From a virus (lineage: Duplodnaviria > Heunggongvirae > Uroviricota > Caudoviricetes), in the IMG/VR virus record IMGVR_UViG_2534681997_000004, positions 1 through 41,177 of that record: DNA of 41,177 bases; one strand, written 5' to 3'. The position numbers were made by a program, and so were the translations under genes. The stretch's first letter is position 1, and each line of letters starts with the position of its first letter. Positions 14,396 through 22,250 of the stretch are shown here, piece by piece. The notes under the pieces are model-generated. The model was given only the letters and a program-made list of their open reading frames with translations, had not been told where the DNA came from and did no database searches.

Positions 14396-14529
14396 CATTT
14401 GAATCCTGTTTTTCCGATCACCTCCGCGTTCGCTGGCAGCGGCTTCGCTTATACCACTTTCCCGGCTCTGTGCTAACGGATTACCGAATACTGAAGAACT
14501 ACATCAAAACCATAGGCGGTGCAGTATGA
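14392..14529 (+). CDS. Small ORF (45 aa) coupled between rusA and the Q-like gene (YlcG-position)
   Basis: ATG overlaps the rusA stop (ATGA) and its stop overlaps the Q-like start (ATGA); not in ORF track because under 60 aa. Confidence 0.4.
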
Positions 14530-15215
14530 ATACTCAATTTCTCGAATACGTGCGCCAGCAGTTGATGGTGGCGACCGCAGACCTCAGCGGGGCGACGAAA
14601 GGGCAGCTGGTAGCTTTCGCCGAGAACGCGCAATTCACCGCGACGGCGCGGAGTCGGGGCCGGAAAAAGGTATTCGACAAGGATAAGCAGCGCATGGTCA
14701 ATCCTGACGGCCAGCCGATGAGCGGCAACCAGTCCCGCGCTAAGGGCTCGTCTATCGCGCTGGTGGGCCCGGTAGAGTACGGGACCGCATCGTGGCGCCG
14801 CGCTGTTCTGTCGCTTGAAGACCATCAGAAAGCGTGGCTGCTATGGAACTATAGCGAGAACGTGCGCTGGTGCTATCAGGTGGAAATCACTCAATGGGCG
14901 TGGGCAGAGTTCCGGGAGCAGCTCGGCGCGAAGAAGGTGGCCGGCAAAACGATGGAGCGCCTGAAGAAGCTTGTCTGGCTCGCGGCTCAGGACGTGAAAG
15001 CAGAGCTGGCAGGGCGTGAGACGTACGAATATCAGGCGCTGGCGTCGCTGGTTGGCGTAACGCCAAAAAACTGGTCAGAGACCTTTACTGACCGCTGGGT
15101 TGAGATGCGCAGCATCTTCCTGCGACTGGATAGCGGGGCTTTATTGCAGGTTACGCGATCACGTTCACAACAAAAGGCGACAAATTTAGACTCAAGTCTT
15201 GCAAAACTGGATTGA
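14526..15215 (+). CDS. Putative late-gene antiterminator (Q-like)
   Basis: 229-aa ORF between rusA and the lysis cassette, followed by a promoter-like element and intrinsic terminators; assignment mainly positional. Confidence 0.5.
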   Translation: MNTQFLEYVRQQLMVATADLSGATKGQLVAFAENAQFTATARSRGRKKVFDKDKQRMVNPDGQPMSGNQSRAKGSSIALVGPVEYGTASWRRAVLSLEDHQKAWLLWNYSENVRWCYQVEITQWAWAEFREQLGAKKVAGKTMERLKKLVWLAAQDVKAELAGRETYEYQALASLVGVTPKNWSETFTDRWVEMRSIFLRLDSGALLQVTRSRSQQKATNLDSSLAKLD

Positions 15216-15235
15216 AACGCATATATTTCATGTAA
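15207..15235 (+). promoter_or_regulatory. Putative late promoter (PR'-like)
   Basis: TTGCAA-17 nt-TATATT at the 3' end of the Q-like gene, upstream of tandem terminators and the holin gene. Confidence 0.35.
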
Positions 15236-15281
15236 ATCTGATATCGTCGCCATAGCTTCGTAGGTCGACAAAGAATTAAGA

Positions 15282-15311
15282 GCCTCGCCATCGTGCGGGG
15301 CTTTTTTATTT
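15282..15311 (+). terminator. Intrinsic terminator (tR'-like, first of tandem pair)
   Basis: 7-bp stem GCCTCGC/GCGGGGC with 6-nt loop followed by TTTTTTATTT. Confidence 0.55.
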
Positions 15312-15412: not shown

Positions 15413-15484
15413 GCGATGTCCGGTCGTTGTTTCCTGGCATCCTTCCACTCTACACAAACAGCACCCCGTTCTTTCGGAGGTGAT

Positions 15485-15802
15485 ATGGCAAAGCGTATGA
15501 ATGACGACCATAAAATTGTAGGCCTGTCCTGGTTAGTCCTGCTCGGCATTGCATGCTGGGGCGGTTTAGTTCGCTACCTGATCGACGTAAAGCAGAATAA
15601 AGCGACATGGAGCTGGATAAACGCGCTGGCACAGATCGCTGTCTCCGGCTTTACCGGTTTGATTGGCGGGTTGATAAGCGTGGAGAGTGGGTTGAGTTTT
15701 CACATGATCCTTGTCACGTCCGGCATTAGCGGGGCGATGGGTTCAGTGGCTCTGACCTATTTCTGGGAACGCTTGACGGGGATGAAGAATGCAAACCAGT
15801 GA
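15485..15802 (+). CDS. Holin
   Basis: 105 aa with GGAGGTGA RBS; hydrophobic transmembrane segments; immediately upstream of and overlapping the lysozyme gene. Confidence 0.7.
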   Translation: MAKRMNDDHKIVGLSWLVLLGIACWGGLVRYLIDVKQNKATWSWINALAQIAVSGFTGLIGGLISVESGLSFHMILVTSGISGAMGSVALTYFWERLTGMKNANQ

Positions 15803-16229
15803 TAAAGGCATTGCCCTGATCAAAGAGTTCGAAGGTTGCAAGCTCACTGCCTATCAGGACAGCGTCGGCGTTTGGACGATCGGTTATGGCTGGACTCAGC
15901 CCGTCGACGGGAAACCAATCCGTGCCGGGATGACAATTAAGCAGGAAACGGCAGAACGCCTGCTGAAGACAGGAATGGTCAGTTACGAAAGTGACGTGTC
16001 ACGACTGGTTAAAGTTGGCCTGACTCAGGGGCAATTCGATGCCCTGGTGTCGTTCACGTATAACCTCGGTGCGCGGTCATTGTCGACATCGACTCTCCTG
16101 CGAAAACTCAACGCCGGAGATTACGCTGGTGCAGCCGATGAGTTCCTGCGCTGGAATAAAGCTGGTGGGAAGGTGCTGAATGGGCTGACACGTCGGCGGG
16201 AGGCAGAGCGAGCTCTGTTCCTGTCATGA
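15789..16229 (+). CDS. Endolysin, lysozyme (GH24 / T4-lysozyme-like)
   Basis: N-terminal LIKEFEGCKLTAYQDSVGVWTIGYGWT catalytic motif. Confidence 0.85.
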   Translation: MQTSDKGIALIKEFEGCKLTAYQDSVGVWTIGYGWTQPVDGKPIRAGMTIKQETAERLLKTGMVSYESDVSRLVKVGLTQGQFDALVSFTYNLGARSLSTSTLLRKLNAGDYAGAADEFLRWNKAGGKVLNGLTRRREAERALFLS

Positions 16230-16612
16230 TTAGCGCACTGGTTAAGCGTTACTGGCTGCAGTTGCTGGTGCTGGCGTTAATCGGCGTGCTGGCGTTCTTC
16301 GTGAACCACTACCGCGACAACGCCATCGCCTACAAAGACCAACGCGATAAGGCGACGGTCCGGGCAGACACATCAGAGGCGATCACCAGCAACGTGATCA
16401 CCACGATGAACCTCATCCGTGACATCTCACAGGCTACCCAGAATGCAAAGAACGAACTGGCTAAAAAGGGCGAGACGCGCATTGTCTACATCAGGCAATG
16501 GCTTGAAGGCGATCCGTGCGCTAAGCAGCTTGTTCCTACTGCCGCTACTGACAGCCTGCGGGAATTCGCAGACAGTTTACGTTCCGGCCCCAGTGGTGCC
16601 GATAAGCGCTGA
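16226..16612 (+). CDS. Rz-like i-spanin
   Basis: 128 aa with N-terminal TM helix and coiled-coil-rich periplasmic part; directly after lysozyme gene. Confidence 0.6.
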   Translation: MISALVKRYWLQLLVLALIGVLAFFVNHYRDNAIAYKDQRDKATVRADTSEAITSNVITTMNLIRDISQATQNAKNELAKKGETRIVYIRQWLEGDPCAKQLVPTAATDSLREFADSLRSGPSGADKR

Positions 16613-16766
16613 CCTGACCGCAGACACACCGATCCCCGGAATGGTGGTTCCGTTCACATGGCAGGCAAGTCTCGAGTTAAACGCTCAGCTCTACACGGCG
16701 CTGGGGCAGTGCAATCTGGATAAGGCAGCAATCAGGAAAATCGAATCATCAAGAGCCTCGCAATAG
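16419..16766 (+). CDS. Rz1-like o-spanin lipoprotein (overlapped with Rz in a different frame)
   Basis: Alternate-frame ORF starting inside Rz; lipobox LLPLLTAC-G; start codon ambiguous (GTG 16419 or ATG 16443). Confidence 0.5.
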   Translation: MTSHRLPRMQRTNWLKRARRALSTSGNGLKAIRALSSLFLLPLLTACGNSQTVYVPAPVVPISADLTADTPIPGMVVPFTWQASLELNAQLYTALGQCNLDKAAIRKIESSRASQ

Positions 16767-16779
16767 CGGGGCTTTTTTA
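16755..16779 (+). terminator. Intrinsic terminator after lysis cassette
   Basis: GCCTCGC-aata-GCGGGGC stem-loop plus TTTTTT; near-duplicate of the 15282 terminator. Confidence 0.55.
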
Positions 16780-16927
16780 CGCCTGCAGTAAACCCGCGCA
16801 TTCTCGTGCGCATATCAACCAAGAGCCTTTCGGGGTAGAGCTTGAGATAGGGCAGTGGTAACGCTGACCGCTCTTGGGCTGCCCATATCTACGAGAACAG
16901 GCTCAACCACCAAAAGGTATCAGCGAA

Positions 16928-17425
16928 ATGAAATCATTAACCCTCTTCAATCAACCAATCCGTGTCGGGGAAGACGGCATGATCTGCCTCACCGATATGT
17001 GGAAAGCCAGTGGCAAAAGTGATGCTGAGTCGCCTTACCACTATCTGCGAAACAAGCAGACAAAAGAGTTCCTGGCCGAGCTGGAGAAAAACCACGAATC
17101 TGTGGTTTTCACTGAGCGCGGTGTACACGGTGGAACATATGGCGGGAAGTTTGTTGCTTACGATTATGCGGCTTGGTTAAACCCCGGGTTCAAGTACGCG
17201 GCCTATAAAGTCCTCGATGACTACTTCACTGGAGAACTTCAGCATCGCAACAGCTTAAGTGCGCAGCTCAACATGAAGTGCCATGAGTTTGACCAGAAAA
17301 AGGACATGGCGAGCTTCTGCGGACAAGGACTCGCAGCATGGCGTTATACGAAGCCTGTATTGGTCGCTGAGATTAACACCCTTGCTAACCAGCTGCAGAT
17401 TACGATCCCAGGGCTTCAAGGATGA
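16928..17425 (+). CDS. KilA-N domain protein
   Basis: N-terminal region (ICLTDMWKASGKSDAESPYHYLRNKQTKEFLAEL) resembles the KilA-N DNA-binding domain; alternative upstream ATG at 16874. Confidence 0.55.
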   Translation: MKSLTLFNQPIRVGEDGMICLTDMWKASGKSDAESPYHYLRNKQTKEFLAELEKNHESVVFTERGVHGGTYGGKFVAYDYAAWLNPGFKYAAYKVLDDYFTGELQHRNSLSAQLNMKCHEFDQKKDMASFCGQGLAAWRYTKPVLVAEINTLANQLQITIPGLQG

Positions 17426-17679
17426 ATAATCGCGTCATCGAATGCGCCTCCAGAGCGGGGCGAGACTTCTCTGAGTTCATGAAAGGCGAGAAGGGCATGA
17501 TGGAAGTGCTGGCCTCGGTTGATCAGTTTGGCGAGCAACTCCGTCTCAACGGCTGCGTCAATCATCACTTTGTCAGTTACATGATGAGGAACTCGATCAT
17601 GCAGGCATTTATGGACATGGCAAACGCTGAGAAGAAAGAAGAGCGTCGCCGTAAACGAGCGGAAGCAAAATCAAGGTAG
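17422..17679 (+). CDS. Hypothetical protein
   Basis: 85 aa, ATGA overlap with the KilA-N gene stop. Confidence 0.4.
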   Translation: MNNRVIECASRAGRDFSEFMKGEKGMMEVLASVDQFGEQLRLNGCVNHHFVSYMMRNSIMQAFMDMANAEKKEERRRKRAEAKSR

Positions 17680-17817
17680 CCATTACAAAGCTCATCGCCG
17701 GGTGGGCTTGATAATGGAAAAAATTAAAGCTTATATTGTGGTTGACATAATCCATTGTTTTGCAATGGTTATTTTGTTGTTGGTATAATTAACTCGTTCC
17801 ACAGATAGGGGGTTAAT

Positions 17818-18096
17818 ATGCTGACAATAATTCTGTTTGACGATGGGAAGCCTGGCTTGATTTGGCCTATCGAAGAAATTGGCAAAGTGGTAAAAGTCCC
17901 TGACTACCAGTTTAAGGCTCGAGAAATGCTCGGTGGTGTGGCGGTCATGCCTGATGTGGAGTATCAGGTCTATGAGTTCCAGATGGATGACGAGATTTAT
18001 CTTATTGGAGTAAATGGGGGCAGGCCAAGCGACGATGTAATTAAGTCTCACATCAAGCATGGCGACCCCAAGCCGGAACCATACAAAACACTGTAA
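17818..18096 (+). CDS. Hypothetical protein (AT-rich moron with own promoter and terminator)
   Basis: 92 aa with GGGGG RBS; extended -10 TGGTATAAT at 17782..17790 upstream; intrinsic terminator immediately downstream. Confidence 0.5.
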   Translation: MLTIILFDDGKPGLIWPIEEIGKVVKVPDYQFKAREMLGGVAVMPDVEYQVYEFQMDDEIYLIGVNGGRPSDDVIKSHIKHGDPKPEPYKTL

Positions 18097-18118
18097 CCGC
18101 CTCCGGGCGGTTTTTTAT
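18097..18118 (+). terminator. Intrinsic terminator
   Basis: CCGCC-tccg-GGCGG stem-loop followed by TTTTTT. Confidence 0.6.
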
Positions 18119-18172
18119 TGTCAACTTTATGAGCAAACTGATCTTAATTACTGTAACTAGGTGGTCAATGAT

Positions 18173-18811
18173 ATGGCAACGCTTAAGGACCTTTCCAGTC
18201 AGTTAAGACAGCTGCAGAAGCAAATACCGTTTGCGACTGCCCAGGCTATGACTAAAGTGGTTCGCCAGATAGAAGCGGCCCAAAAAACAGCATTTGAGCG
18301 GAATCTGGATAATCCAACACCTTTTACAGTTAAATCGGTTGGGTCAGTTGGTGCCAGGAAAAACAGCCTTCGTGCGAAGGTGTTTGTTCGTGATACTGCT
18401 GCTGGTTACCTTGAACCCTTCGAGTTCGGCGGAGAGCACAAGCTTAATGGTAGTGCTTTGCTTAACCCGAAAGACATAAAGCTTAATAAATACGGCAACC
18501 TGCCGCGTAATAAGCTCTCTCAGCTCAAAGCAAAGGAAAATGTATTCGTAGGTGAGGTGGATGGCGTTAACGCTGTCTGGCAGCGTAAGAAACCGATGAA
18601 AGCTAAGAAGCGACGGGCCAAGCGCTCCGCTAATGGGACGCGAAGACCGAAACGTAAACAGCGTTCTCCAAAGCTTTTGATCCGGTTTGGTGATGCGCTA
18701 CCTGTGACTCCAGTGCTGGGGTATATGGATAGGGCCCGTACCATGGCGAACGCACTGCTACCGTCTGCTTTAAATCAGGCGATAGCAGAAGCCATCAGGA
18801 CGGCAAAATAA
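18173..18811 (+). CDS. Hypothetical protein with Lys/Arg-rich segment
   Basis: 212 aa from ATG 18173 (AGGTGG RBS); basic stretch KKPMKAKKRRAKRSANGTRRPKRKQRSPK. Confidence 0.45.
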   Translation: MATLKDLSSQLRQLQKQIPFATAQAMTKVVRQIEAAQKTAFERNLDNPTPFTVKSVGSVGARKNSLRAKVFVRDTAAGYLEPFEFGGEHKLNGSALLNPKDIKLNKYGNLPRNKLSQLKAKENVFVGEVDGVNAVWQRKKPMKAKKRRAKRSANGTRRPKRKQRSPKLLIRFGDALPVTPVLGYMDRARTMANALLPSALNQAIAEAIRTAK

Positions 18812-18821
18812 AAGCAGTAAC

Positions 18822-19325
18822 TTATAAGTTAATTTCGCAAGCTTTTATGAAGCTGTTTACTGCAGTTGTCGATCCAGAAACATTGGCTGACATGGAATGC
18901 TGGTTTCCGCCATCCTTTGTTTGCACACCAACTAACACTTTGGATTTCGCCCCCTGAAGCTGCTTAAGCACTGTTTTTAGTTGGTCCGCGTCATCCGATT
19001 GAATCTGGAGGCTCTGAACATTACGTCTTGAAAGGGTAGCATCGAGCTTCACTGCGGTATTCCCGTCGACCTTCATTATCAGGTCCATTGGTACCTCTGA
19101 TAGTGATTCGGTGCTTTTATCCATTTCAACGTATGCCGCCGATAGCTTTTCTTTAGTGCAGTCAAACACAATGGCGCCATTGTCGGATGAAACCTCGCCA
19201 AGCATCATTGCTTTCTTACCACCAGAGAAAAGGTCATCTTCAGTATTAGTTACCCACTGGGCATGAGCAATTGGTGATGCCAGCACTGCGGCTACGAAAG
19301 TTATTTTGATTATATTGTTACCCAT
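18822..19325 (-). CDS. Secreted/periplasmic hypothetical protein (signal peptide), opposite-strand moron
   Basis: AAGGAG RBS 7 nt before ATG 19325; N-terminal signal MGNNIIKITFVAAVLASPIAHA-QW; AT-rich. Confidence 0.55.
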   Translation of the reverse strand: MGNNIIKITFVAAVLASPIAHAQWVTNTEDDLFSGGKKAMMLGEVSSDNGAIVFDCTKEKLSAAYVEMDKSTESLSEVPMDLIMKVDGNTAVKLDATLSRRNVQSLQIQSDDADQLKTVLKQLQGAKSKVLVGVQTKDGGNQHSMSANVSGSTTAVNSFIKACEINL

Positions 19326-19468
19326 TACATTCTCCTTGTATTGAATAGGAATAATCATAGTCGGAGCGAATGGTCGAAGCCATTAAAAAAATGGGTCCTT
19401 CCTGAGACTTTTGTAAGGTACGGGCATTGCGCGCCGCGGTGTTTTCCTAGCTACAACTTTCAGATTTG

Positions 19469-19618
19469 TGTCCCATGTCCCACCTCTGGCGATCATTACG
19501 GACACCTCGCCAGCTCTGGCTATTCCAGTTTATTCCAGTGGGACATTCTGGTGGGACATGGCAAAAATGTCCCAGGCGAATGTCCCACCCCAGAAAATGT
19601 CCCAGGTGATGTCCCATG
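19469..19618. repeat. Array of about 8 TGTCCCA repeats (6 direct, 2 inverted); candidate cosB-like terminase binding sites
   Basis: TGTCCCA at about 19469, 19476, 19569, 19581, 19599, 19611 and TGGGACA at about 19539 and 19551, ending at the Nu1-like start codon. Confidence 0.55.
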
Positions 19619-20185
19619 ACCACGATGAACCAGAGTCAGTACGCACAACATTCAGGTGTGGATCGCAAAACAATTGGTCGGTGGATTAAAGCCGGGCGCT
19701 TCATTGTGATGGACGGAGACCTGATTGACGTAGAGGCCAGCGATGCGGCATTGAAGAAAAACCGCGATGGCAAAGACCCGCGCGCCTCGAACGCGAAGAA
19801 AAAGAAAACTCCCGTCGTTAGCGATAACGATGATGACGGTGATGAAATCAATAAAACTGTCCGCCAGATAATGCTCACTGAAGGGGCAGATCTTTCGAGA
19901 GAGGAAGCGGGACGTATCCGCGAGAATTACATGGCCCTGCAGGCAAAGCTGCAGTATGAAAAAGACAGCGGCCAGCTTATTGAGCTGACAGCAGCCGAGG
20001 AGGTTTTATTCAACGCCTTTCGCCAACAGCGTGATGCCTGGCTTAACTGGCCGTCCAGGGTGGCGCCGCTAATGGCTGCTGATCTGGATGTACCGGCGGA
20101 CAGGATGACAGAGGTGCTGATTGAACATGTCCACAAACACATCTCAGTCCTCGGAGAGCCAGAGTTTAACCCGGCAGAAGATTGA
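19616..20185 (+). CDS. Terminase small subunit (Nu1-like)
   Basis: 189 aa; N-terminal HTH (QYAQHSGVDRKTIGRWIKAG); immediately upstream of and overlapping the large terminase gene. Confidence 0.6.
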   Translation: MTTMNQSQYAQHSGVDRKTIGRWIKAGRFIVMDGDLIDVEASDAALKKNRDGKDPRASNAKKKKTPVVSDNDDDGDEINKTVRQIMLTEGADLSREEAGRIRENYMALQAKLQYEKDSGQLIELTAAEEVLFNAFRQQRDAWLNWPSRVAPLMAADLDVPADRMTEVLIEHVHKHISVLGEPEFNPAED

Positions 20186-22250
20186 GCGTCTTGAATTAAG
20201 CGTCCGCAAAGGCTGGACACCCCCGCCGCGTATCAGTGTGCCGCAGTGGGCAGATGACTATCGTAAGCTGGCAAAAGAGGCTGGGAGCACTTCGGGAAAC
20301 TGGGAAACATCGACGGTAGAAATTGCCCGCGGACCGATGCTTGCCGCGACGGAGTCCGGGGTTCATATCATCACTGTAATGTGCTGTACCCAGTTGATGA
20401 AGACAGCACTGCTGGAAAACCTTTTTGGCTATTTTGCCCACCTCGATCCTTGTCCGATACTGCTGCTGCAGCCGAAAGAAGAAGCCGCTGAACAGTTTTC
20501 GAAAGAGCGTATTAGCCCGCTGGTAAGGGTGACGCCGGTACTGCGTAAAATCATCGGTGATTCGAAACAGAAAAGCTCGAAAGAAACCATTCTTTACAAG
20601 GCATTCACTGGCGGATTTCTGGCGCTGGCGGGTGCTGGTAGCCCTGATAACCTTGCGCGTCGTCCGATTCGTGTCCTGCTGGCGGATGAAGTGGACAAGT
20701 ACCCGATAACCCGCGAAGGCGATCCAATTGCGCTGGCCGAAGAGCGTACAGCGACATTTGGCCTGACCTGGCTGTCTGTACGCGCCTGTTCGCCGACGGT
20801 GGAGGATGAGAGCCGCATTGCTGACAGCTACGCCGACTCCGATCAGCGCCGGGCATCTGTGGTTTGCCCGCACTGTGGCCACCGCCAGTTCCCCGACTTT
20901 TTCAAACACGTTCAGTGGCCGAAAGAGGGAGATAAACACCTGACTAAATCGGCGATGCTCTATTGCGAATGCTGTGGTAGTGGCTGGTCCGAAGGACAGC
21001 GCCTCAGAGCTCTGCACACTATTCGATGGCATCAGACGCGCCCATTTGAGTGCTGCGGGGAGCGGCACTCACCGCTGATGGATTATGACCTTGCCTGGCG
21101 GGCGGCAGACGAGGGCAGCGTTGAAAAGGTCTGGCAATGGTCAGAGTCGGAACGGCATGCGGTCTATCGCGCAATCTGCCCCTCCTGTGGAAAGGAGGCA
21201 GTCGATAACCACCACGCGGGGTACCAGGCATCCAAGCTTTTCAGCCCCTGGCAAAAAGATAAGCCGTCGGATATTGCGAAAAAATATATCGATGCGAAGG
21301 GCGATCCGGATAAGGAACAGGCGTGGTGGAATACCCAGATGGGGCTTCCGCACCGACCTAATCATGGGAAACAGCTCCCTGTTGATGTTCTGCTGGCGCG
21401 CCGGGAAATATTTCCGGCCGTCGTTCCGGACGGGGTGGCATTGTTAACAGCTGGAGTTGATACCCAGGACGATCGCTTCGAAATTACGATCACCGGCTGG
21501 GGGAGAGATGAAGAATCGTGGTCGGTCGCGCATGACGTTATTTATGGTGACCTTGAGACGGAAGAACCCTGGAAGCGACTGGATGCATACCTGAAACAGA
21601 TCTGGCGACGTGGTGACGGGCGCGGCCTGAATATCATGGCAACGTGCATGGACTCCGGTGGCCACCATACGCAGAAGGTATACGAATTCGCCAAAGAGCG
21701 TCTTGGCCGTCGTGTCTGGGCAATTAAGGGGGAGTCTGCACAGGGAGGTAAACGCAATCCTGTCTGGCCGACCAAACGACCATCATCGAAAAGCAAAGCC
21801 AGTTTCCGCCCTGTCATTCTGGGGGTTAACTCAGCGAAAGACGTGATACGCGGTCGCCTGCATCTTGAGCCACCCAAACCTGGCGCCGCCGCTGCGGGTT
21901 ATATGCATTTTCCTGACGATCGCGATCTCGGGTACTTCAATCAGCTGCTGGCGGAGCGACTGGTTTACAAAGTCATTTCCGGGCAGCGGTACAGTATCTG
22001 GGAAGCAATACCAGGACGAGCTAACGAAGCGCTTGACTGCCTCGTTTACAGCTATGCCGCGCTGTGCGGTCTCAAACATATGGGGTTAAAACTCAACGTC
22101 CGGGCCGCCAACCTCGAAGCCGATCCGGATAAGTTCCTGCCAGCGCCAGTTGGACAGGAAGAAAAAATCAATTACGAGCTGCCGGGTGCGGTTATTGAAG
22201 AACCAGCGCCGGTCAAACGTAAGCGAATATCGCAACTCCTGCCGAAATAA
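20127..22250 (+). CDS. Terminase large subunit (lambda GpA family)
   Basis: About 707 aa; ATPase region (ITVMCCTQLMKTALLENL ... VLLADEVDKYP) and C-terminal nuclease region typical of GpA-type terminases; TTG at 20121 alternative start. Confidence 0.85.
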   Translation: MSTNTSQSSESQSLTRQKIERLELSVRKGWTPPPRISVPQWADDYRKLAKEAGSTSGNWETSTVEIARGPMLAATESGVHIITVMCCTQLMKTALLENLFGYFAHLDPCPILLLQPKEEAAEQFSKERISPLVRVTPVLRKIIGDSKQKSSKETILYKAFTGGFLALAGAGSPDNLARRPIRVLLADEVDKYPITREGDPIALAEERTATFGLTWLSVRACSPTVEDESRIADSYADSDQRRASVVCPHCGHRQFPDFFKHVQWPKEGDKHLTKSAMLYCECCGSGWSEGQRLRALHTIRWHQTRPFECCGERHSPLMDYDLAWRAADEGSVEKVWQWSESERHAVYRAICPSCGKEAVDNHHAGYQASKLFSPWQKDKPSDIAKKYIDAKGDPDKEQAWWNTQMGLPHRPNHGKQLPVDVLLARREIFPAVVPDGVALLTAGVDTQDDRFEITITGWGRDEESWSVAHDVIYGDLETEEPWKRLDAYLKQIWRRGDGRGLNIMATCMDSGGHHTQKVYEFAKERLGRRVWAIKGESAQGGKRNPVWPTKRPSSKSKASFRPVILGVNSAKDVIRGRLHLEPPKPGAAAAGYMHFPDDRDLGYFNQLLAERLVYKVISGQRYSIWEAIPGRANEALDCLVYSYAALCGLKHMGLKLNVRAANLEADPDKFLPAPVGQEEKINYELPGAVIEEPAPVKRKRISQLLPK

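Follow-up and report, generated by a model that had tools for sequence, protein, structure and literature searches.

A single-gene cassette in the late region of a prophage

We analysed a 41,177-nucleotide (nt) stretch of DNA from a virus of the class Caudoviricetes (IMG/VR record IMGVR_UViG_2534681997_000004, positions 1 to 41,177). This whole stretch, called the window below, is a complete prophage. Between its lysis and packaging genes lies a cassette (17680..18118) with a single gene, a predicted promoter and an intrinsic terminator. A previous reading of the letters alone, the original prediction, had described it as a moron, that is, an accessory gene with its own promoter and terminator that is likely to be active in the lysogen. 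The gene is an open reading frame (ORF) of 92 codons on the + strand (17818..18096), which starts with ATG, stops with TAA at 18094-18096 and codes for a protein of the phrog_17438 group. A Shine-Dalgarno sequence GGGGG is located 5 nt ahead of the ATG (17808..17812, + strand). Upstream of it, the extended -10 element TGGTATAAT occupies positions 17781..17789 of the + strand, with TATAAT at 17784..17789. The original prediction had placed this element at 17782..17790; the element is there, and its coordinates had to be moved one base to the left. The -35-like hexamer TTGCAA (17760..17765, + strand) is separated from TATAAT by an 18-nt spacer, and in the promoter scan the site has 10/12 matches plus the TG. 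The transcript start is predicted at about 17796, which would give a 5′ untranslated region (UTR) of about 21 nt.

The gene is followed directly by a predicted intrinsic terminator, as had been proposed. It consists of the hairpin AACCGCC-TCCG-GGCGGTT (18095..18112) and the T6 tract (18113..18118), occupies 18095..18118 of the + strand and forms the right joint of the cassette. The hairpin has a 7-bp stem with 5 G-C pairs, a tetraloop and U6, and the stem overlaps the stop codon of the ORF. The centroid hairpin has an energy of -12.8 kcal/mol; for the folded 43-nt segment, z is -3.3, and 0/200 shuffles reached its folding stability. The ORF had also been called A+T-rich. This was overstated, since its G+C content is 46.6% compared to 51.9% for the window, and the truly A+T-rich part is the 138-nt upstream spacer, with a G+C content of 36%.

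We compared 31 homologous loci with their flanks, taken from E. coli genomes, IMG/VR contigs and assemblies. The order of the elements is kept in all of them: a hairpin, about 25 nt of A+T-rich sequence, a TTGACATAA box, the extended -10, the leader, the ribosome-binding site (RBS), the ORF and the terminator. The -10 hexamer is TATAAT in 28 loci and TAAAAT in 3, and the TG is present in 29/31. Together they occur as TGGTATAAT (17 loci), TGATATAAT (9 loci), TGATAAAAT (3 loci) or GGGTATAAT (2 loci). The -10 and the ATG are a constant 27–29 nt apart, purine-rich equivalents of the RBS (GAGGG, AGGAGG) are present in all loci, the A+T-rich spacer of about 100 nt is kept in every locus, and the ORF is unbroken in 31/31. 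The terminator has the form AACCGCC-nnnn-GGCGGTT-T6 with a conserved stem and a variable loop; the exceptions are one locus with a deleted stem and one with a C-to-T change.

It turned out that the promoters belong to two architectures. Class A promoters (22 loci, window included) have a TTGCAA-type -35 at 18 nt, which is largely conserved and takes the form TTGCAA, TTGTAA, TTGAAA, TTGCAT or TTGAAT, and TATAAT is identical in 17/17 distinct class A sequences. Class B promoters (9 loci) have no recognisable -35 and contain TG-n-TATAAT alone. The -10 and the TG survive in both architectures, while the spacer and the leader diverge and the protein identity falls to 47%, which argues that the promoter is functional. 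A search of complete E. coli genomes found the cassette promoter sequence at only 14 sites, of which at least 12 belong to cassette-bearing genomes; the cassette gene itself is rare (about 0.3% of these genomes). Judged by these features, the cassette appears to carry its own promoter and its own factor-independent terminator, as a moron should.

The TTGACATAA box (17742..17750, + strand) is present in 31/31 loci, usually with GG ahead of it. The distance from the box to TATAAT is 36 nt in class A (22 loci) and 24 nt in class B (9 loci). With such spacing, and with no conserved -10 partner at 16–18 nt, TTGACA at 17742 was ruled out as a -35 hexamer. The inverted repeat CCATTGT-TTT-GCAATGG (17752..17768, + strand; z = -3.2) overlaps the -35-like hexamer. 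It is a possible operator, although the evidence is weak, and in the other class A loci it is conserved only in part, as CAyTG..CAATG.

The leader can also be folded. Hairpins at 17790-17820 and at the equivalent positions of other loci have the Shine-Dalgarno sequence in their 3′ arm in most variants (CCUCU/AGAGG, CUCUC/GAGAG, CUCGU/ACGAG, UAACUC/GGGUUA), and this may be due to chance. Sequestration of the Shine-Dalgarno sequence by such 5′ UTR hairpins was rejected, because their energies match those of shuffled sequences (z mostly from +1.5 to -1.9; only one locus, L018, reaches -3.6).

Exchange of the cassette among prophages

The left end of the cassette is formed by the hairpin CCATTAC-AAAGCTCATC-GCCG-GGTGGGCTT-GATAATGG (17680..17717, + strand), which directly adjoins the stop codon of the gene before it. 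Its folding energy is -20.1 kcal/mol (z = -5.3). The hairpin is present in 31/31 cassette loci, whichever gene precedes it, and also in the cassette-free phages HK022, ES18 and mEp235. Five of its pairs are altered on both sides, 0/500 shuffles reach its covariation score, and its U-G wobbles pair on the + strand only. The hairpin is not a canonical terminator, because it has no U-tract. In our reading, it belongs to the upstream unit as its 3′ hairpin and would serve the cassette as the left joint of exchange. Its candidate roles include a transcript 3′ end or stabiliser, a processing site and a module joint. Since both the left hairpin and the terminator also occur in phages without the gene, they are likely joints of homologous exchange.

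In every locus, the lysis genes (lysozyme/Rz) come before the cassette, in some cases together with KilA-N, Rha or phrog_875 genes. The packaging module that comes after it is of one of at least four unrelated types (GpA-type, P22-like, the type found in L004, and one with a DUF1441 small terminase subunit, TerS). An identical protein (P0006) is encoded on backbones that differ in their Q, replication and terminase genes. We also looked at relatives in which the gene is absent. In HK022, unrelated sequence comes after the phrog_875 gene and the hairpin, and there is no cassette; in ES18 and mEp235, the left hairpin follows the phrog_875 gene, and the cassette is again absent. At least 14 E. 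coli genomes with ECCWS199-type prophages have the same terminator, 216-aa gene, 178-aa gene, TerS and TerL (large terminase subunit) as the window, and here the slot is filled by a DUF2513 gene that ends on the terminator. By this comparison, the cassette is extra DNA between genes that in related phages are adjacent or have something else between them.

This strongly supports the structural part of the original prediction, namely a moron of one gene equipped with an extended -10 promoter and a terminator: the unit is conserved in 31 loci and on several backbones, and in relatives the slot is empty or holds another gene. The cassette is very probably a genuine moron: its roughly 440 bp form a self-contained transcription unit and would be swapped as a block. 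With similar confidence, the loci suggest that lambdoid and P22-like prophages of Enterobacteriaceae exchange it, in every case where the lysis genes meet the packaging genes.

The position of the cassette between the lysis and packaging modules was correctly predicted, with lysozyme and Rz/Rz1 before it and TerS and TerL after it. A scan of the window genes revealed a Q gene of the lambda-82 type at 14526-15215. Just downstream of it, preceded by a promoter-like site, is a short leader (15231..15304, + strand) that matches the Rfam family isrJ (68.7 bits, E = 1.5e-11) and finishes in a terminator at 15278-15305. It looks like the pR′-tR′ short leader (6S-like RNA) of a Q-dependent late operon. 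If this is true, the Salmonella ‘isrJ sRNA’ family (a small RNA, sRNA) is a prophage late-leader transcript. Then follow the holin gene, located between the leader and the lysozyme gene, the lysozyme gene (15789..16229), Rz/Rz1 (16226..16766), a KilA-N/ORF11CD3 gene (16874..17425) and the phrog_875 gene (17422..17679), which is directly upstream of the cassette.

Downstream of the cassette is a 216-aa gene (18161-18811, + strand) of phrog_1924, which is annotated as ‘minor tail protein’. The gene has no Pfam or NCBIfam match, and upstream of TerS is an odd site for a tail gene; the label is probably unreliable. The next gene (18822-19358, 178 aa, phrog_19473, unknown function) is on the - strand, opposite to the late operon. 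By eye, the N-terminus of its protein resembles a signal peptide (…VLASPIAHA/QW), and the gene is missing from some related backbones (L011). By these sequence features, it is a second candidate moron with a probably secreted product. TerS (19616..20185) and a GpA-type TerL (20121..22250) complete the region. The prophage of E. coli MLI104K1 is 98.9% identical to the window over 15444..22160 and unrelated upstream of 15444. Upstream of this mosaic breakpoint (about 15444), MLI104K1 has tRNA-Asn, tRNA-Thr and DUF2441 genes, and the window has no tRNA genes.

The protein family

The cassette protein has 92 aa, a mass of 10.4 kDa, an isoelectric point (pI) of 4.7 and no membrane segment, and it is identical to E. 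coli WP_024174861.1. By inspection, it has no features of a signal peptide or a lipoprotein. Such a protein is probably small, soluble and cytoplasmic, as far as its sequence tells. Its only profile of reference, phrog_17438 (unknown function), matches residues 1-92 at profile positions 1-88 of 88 (E = 1.4e-35). The exact protein was found on 54 contigs. Profile searches of 5.8 billion proteins gave a family of about 35 clusters with members of 91-92 aa, in Enterobacteriaceae only (Escherichia, Leclercia, Kluyvera, Atlantibacter, Cronobacter and Enterobacter). A HMMER profile pass over 1.84 billion representatives returned only 5, frameshifted copies included, and such copies account for 3 of about 38 protein clusters. 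A tblastn search of 50,697 GenBank phage records gave no match to the cassette protein, and a literature search for the accessions and the PHROG identifier gave none either.

The family is under selection as a protein. The median ratio of nonsynonymous to synonymous substitution rates (dN/dS) is 0.30 for 13 divergent genes (69 pairs, dS up to about 2.6), and the 92 codons are free of indels across 47-99% identity. An ORF that is poorly conserved or interrupted in related prophages had been named in advance as an argument against an accessory gene. We did not see this: the sense frame is intact in 27/27 distinct sequences. By these measures, the ORF is a real gene whose 92 codons are under purifying selection. 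A codon-aligned antisense ORF (17731..18060) was rejected, since it is interrupted in 12/27 distinct sequences.

These data also bear on the possibility that the functional product is an RNA, namely an sRNA made of the 3′ end and the terminator, with the ORF incidental or secondary. Many 3′-derived sRNAs share this layout. The third-codon-position identity does rise toward the terminator: it is 0.42-0.60 mid-gene, 0.73-0.74 over codons 71-90 and 0.97 for the three final codons. However, this rise fits recombination at the right joint and may be explained by it equally well. The Rfam scan gave no match inside the cassette, and indel-free codons with a dN/dS of 0.30 at such a high dS indicate selection at the protein level. 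Thus, we consider a functional RNA highly improbable.

The residues F7, G10, G13, V51, Y61, L62, G64, P70 and I75 are invariant in the family, and E19, G40, E53, G67, S71, D72, I79, H81, P88, K90 and L92 are nearly so. They suggest no catalytic site, and there is no enzyme-like conserved motif among them. We tried several assignments and rejected them. Dinucleotide binding (GxGxxG) came into question because some members have GAGxxG at the N-terminus; in the window protein, Asp replaces the first Gly of this motif, and of its residues only G10 and G13 never vary. A DNA mimic was rejected because the pI varies from 4.7 to 7.9 over the family, so that acidity is not conserved.

Two E. coli homologues are labelled by PGAP as a PP2C phosphatase. 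They are the product of L002 4141-4419 (WP_227533682.1) and a protein of NZ_AP045775.1, which appear in RefSeq/PGAP as ‘serine/threonine-protein phosphatase’ or ‘PP2C family’. No PP2C, SpoIIE or PP2C_2 match was found in Pfam for the 33 members (E ≤ 10), and NCBIfam (E ≤ 1) was also negative for three homologues, the PGAP-labelled L002 protein among them. PP2C has a catalytic domain of about 240 aa with metal-binding Asp motifs, whereas the cassette protein has 92 aa, and the only feature common to them is the database label. We therefore take the label to be spurious, because the protein is too short for the domain and no profile supports it.

Distant homologues of 91 aa were observed in two further loci (L041 7600-8320; L005 1-700). 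Their identity is 24–28% in the family alignment and up to about 31% in local alignments. A primase gene and an array of iteron-like repeats (GAACCAAC) come before them, and the structural genes come after. They are equipped with a terminator of their own and with a hairpin, CCCCCTTT…AAAGGGGG, in which the RBS would be sequestered.

Expression, possible function and comparison with known systems

In several loci, the immediate upstream neighbour of the cassette is a gene of an anti-defence family. An Acb2/Tad1-hairpin gene is found there in L025, L032, L033 and L043 (about -390 to -130 relative to the cassette gene, E = 4.8e-10), a Tad2-like (DUF2829) gene in L035 (-419 to -141, E = 1.9e-24), and a gene of the N4 gp49/Sf6 gp66 family in L018 and L034 (-505 to -140). 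In loci with such neighbours, the gap between lysis and packaging genes looks like an accessory or anti-defence hot spot. Kinship of the cassette protein to these neighbours was rejected, since the hhalign probability is 0.5% for the Tad2-like and 0.07% for the Acb2-like protein and there is no Pfam match. Because the same slot holds genes of the Acb2/Tad1 and Tad2 types in several loci, the protein may act in phage-host or phage-phage conflict, as a factor of counter-defence or superinfection control. We propose this functional arena tentatively, at somewhat less than even chances.

The best overall explanation, which we consider probable, is that the element is an exchangeable moron cassette that would express itself and whose product would act in this arena. 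According to this model, the host sigma-70 RNA polymerase would initiate near 17796 independently of Q-dependent late transcription, in the lysogen and immediately after DNA entry. The transcript of about 320 nt would stop at 18118, and the packaging genes downstream would stay silent, because the cassette terminator stops the transcript. During late lytic growth, Q-modified polymerase coming from pR′ would read through the cassette; such read-through is established for lambdoid late operons. The product would act by binding a host or phage protein. A stoichiometric binder is favoured because the conserved residues suggest no catalytic site.

Activity of the promoter in the lysogen is a reasonable inference, because a near-consensus sigma-70 promoter travels among phages with different Q and replication modules. 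Since it is kept across these modules, the promoter is unlikely to need the regulators of one particular phage. One possible role of the protein is that of a factor of lysogenic conversion or superinfection control, which would be made constitutively in the repressed prophage and would help the lysogen through protein binding, for instance by keeping other phages out or changing some process of the host. Such is the classical role of morons with the order promoter-gene-terminator, among them lambda bor and lom and HK97 gp15. A promoter conserved over backbones with different Q and immunity modules, and hence independent of phage-specific regulators, would suit this role, and so would a terminator that insulates the packaging genes downstream. 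However, most characterised exclusion morons code for membrane or secreted proteins, and the cassette protein has neither a membrane segment nor a signal peptide; the PADLOC search described below gave no match; and the gene is present in few complete E. coli genomes and is sometimes frameshifted. As the specific role of the protein, this is possible, although we rate it well below an even chance.

We rate no higher the possibility that this is an anti-defence gene whose strong private promoter provides immediate-early expression on infection, with expression in the lysogen being incidental. A private promoter makes sense for such a gene, because the position in the late region would express it too late. 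As acr operons illustrate, clustering and strong promoters are known features of anti-defence genes. The Acb2/Tad1-hairpin genes of four loci and the Tad2-like gene of one adjoin the cassette in the same slot, and the small soluble protein is of a suitable kind. On the other hand, the protein is unrelated to Acb2 and Tad2, the association is limited to about 5/31 loci, there is no Aca-like repressor gene, and the family is very narrow, being found in Enterobacteriaceae only. The architecture of the cassette suits an anti-defence gene and a lysogen-benefit or exclusion factor equally well. A bolder version is that the 92-aa protein founds a new phage conflict family, most likely of immune-system inhibitors, encoded by a plug-in cassette with a constitutive promoter and a terminator in an anti-defence hot spot, the flanking hairpin and the terminator being the swap joints. 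Taken as a whole, this version is doubtful.

Several observations weigh against the explanation that we favour, or against parts of it. Early-lytic expression would be an equally good reason for a private promoter as expression in the lysogen. The TTGACATAA box may be a site for a regulator, which would weaken the proposal that the promoter is constitutive. Anti-defence neighbours are in the minority, and most upstream neighbours are KilA-N/Rha regulator-like genes. As for the function, no match was found in Pfam (all 33 members, E ≤ 10), NCBIfam (3 homologues, E ≤ 1), PADLOC-DB (3 divergent members, E ≤ 1) or, for the cassette protein, among PDB sequences. AlphaFold2 gave a mean confidence (pLDDT) of 60 and a predicted template-modelling score (pTM) of 0.52 with 12 sequences, and a pLDDT of 42 with 33 sequences. 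The structure-based homology search that had been suggested as a check of the original prediction was thus of no help: it had no usable AlphaFold model to start from, and fold searches with the poor ones returned only noise.

Finally, signals of the kind found in the cassette are not enriched in the window, which contains 8 promoter-like patterns against 5.3 ± 2.0 expected from shuffles and 10 terminator-like patterns against 6.7 ± 2.5. We regard the signals of the cassette as beyond chance because they are conserved among loci, and not because they match a pattern. The lack of promoter enrichment would also be expected if the gene were an ordinary late gene, expressed from the Q-dependent late transcript only, next to a fortuitous or non-functional promoter-like sequence. 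The gene does have the orientation of the late operon, and the DUF2513 gene in the same slot is 33 nt from the lysis gene, which leaves no room for a promoter. Nevertheless, such a late gene is improbable. The -10 and the TG are kept in 29-31 of the 31 loci, in two architectures, despite divergence of the spacer and the 5′ UTR; the A+T-rich spacer of about 100 nt is never lost; and the few genomic sites of the promoter sequence are nearly confined to genomes with the cassette.

If the cassette is expressed as we infer, it is a clean and portable example of accessory-gene exchange in temperate phages. The conserved mobile entity is the whole promoter-gene-terminator unit between two short structured joints and not the ORF alone. 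Any phenotype of this orphan protein would establish a new family, be it one of counter-defence, superinfection control or host modulation, and with Acb2/Tad1- and Tad2-like genes next to it in some loci, the gene is a reasonable choice for anti-defence screens. The probably spurious ‘PP2C phosphatase’ annotation is flagged here as one that may be propagating in RefSeq.

The cassette resembles the anti-defence clusters of phages (Acb2/Tad1, Tad2, acr-aca) in that a small gene stands beside sponge genes in five loci and has a private promoter, predicted to be strong, as in acr operons. It differs from them in having no similarity to Acb2 or Tad2 and no Aca-type regulator, and in the adjacency being a matter of a minority of loci. 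The likeness to morons is closer. These were reportedly defined for HK97 and HK022, by Juhala et al. and Hendrix et al. in 2000, and the cassette shares with the lambdoid morons of that definition the extra DNA, the single ORF and the sigma-70 promoter and intrinsic terminator (both predicted here). Its G+C content is slightly lower than that of its surroundings, but for the ORF the difference is small. Like lambda bor, it is located in the late region, in the gap between lysis genes and cos or packaging genes; unlike bor, which has the opposite orientation, it is co-oriented with the late operon. Its product, in contrast to those of morons of the bor/lom type, is a soluble orphan and not a lipoprotein or membrane protein. 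Phage morons are a known kind of element, and this cassette with its orphan protein is a well-delimited addition to them. Compared to the classical morons, conservation of the whole unit, promoter and terminator included, over at least four backbones is documented here and not assumed.

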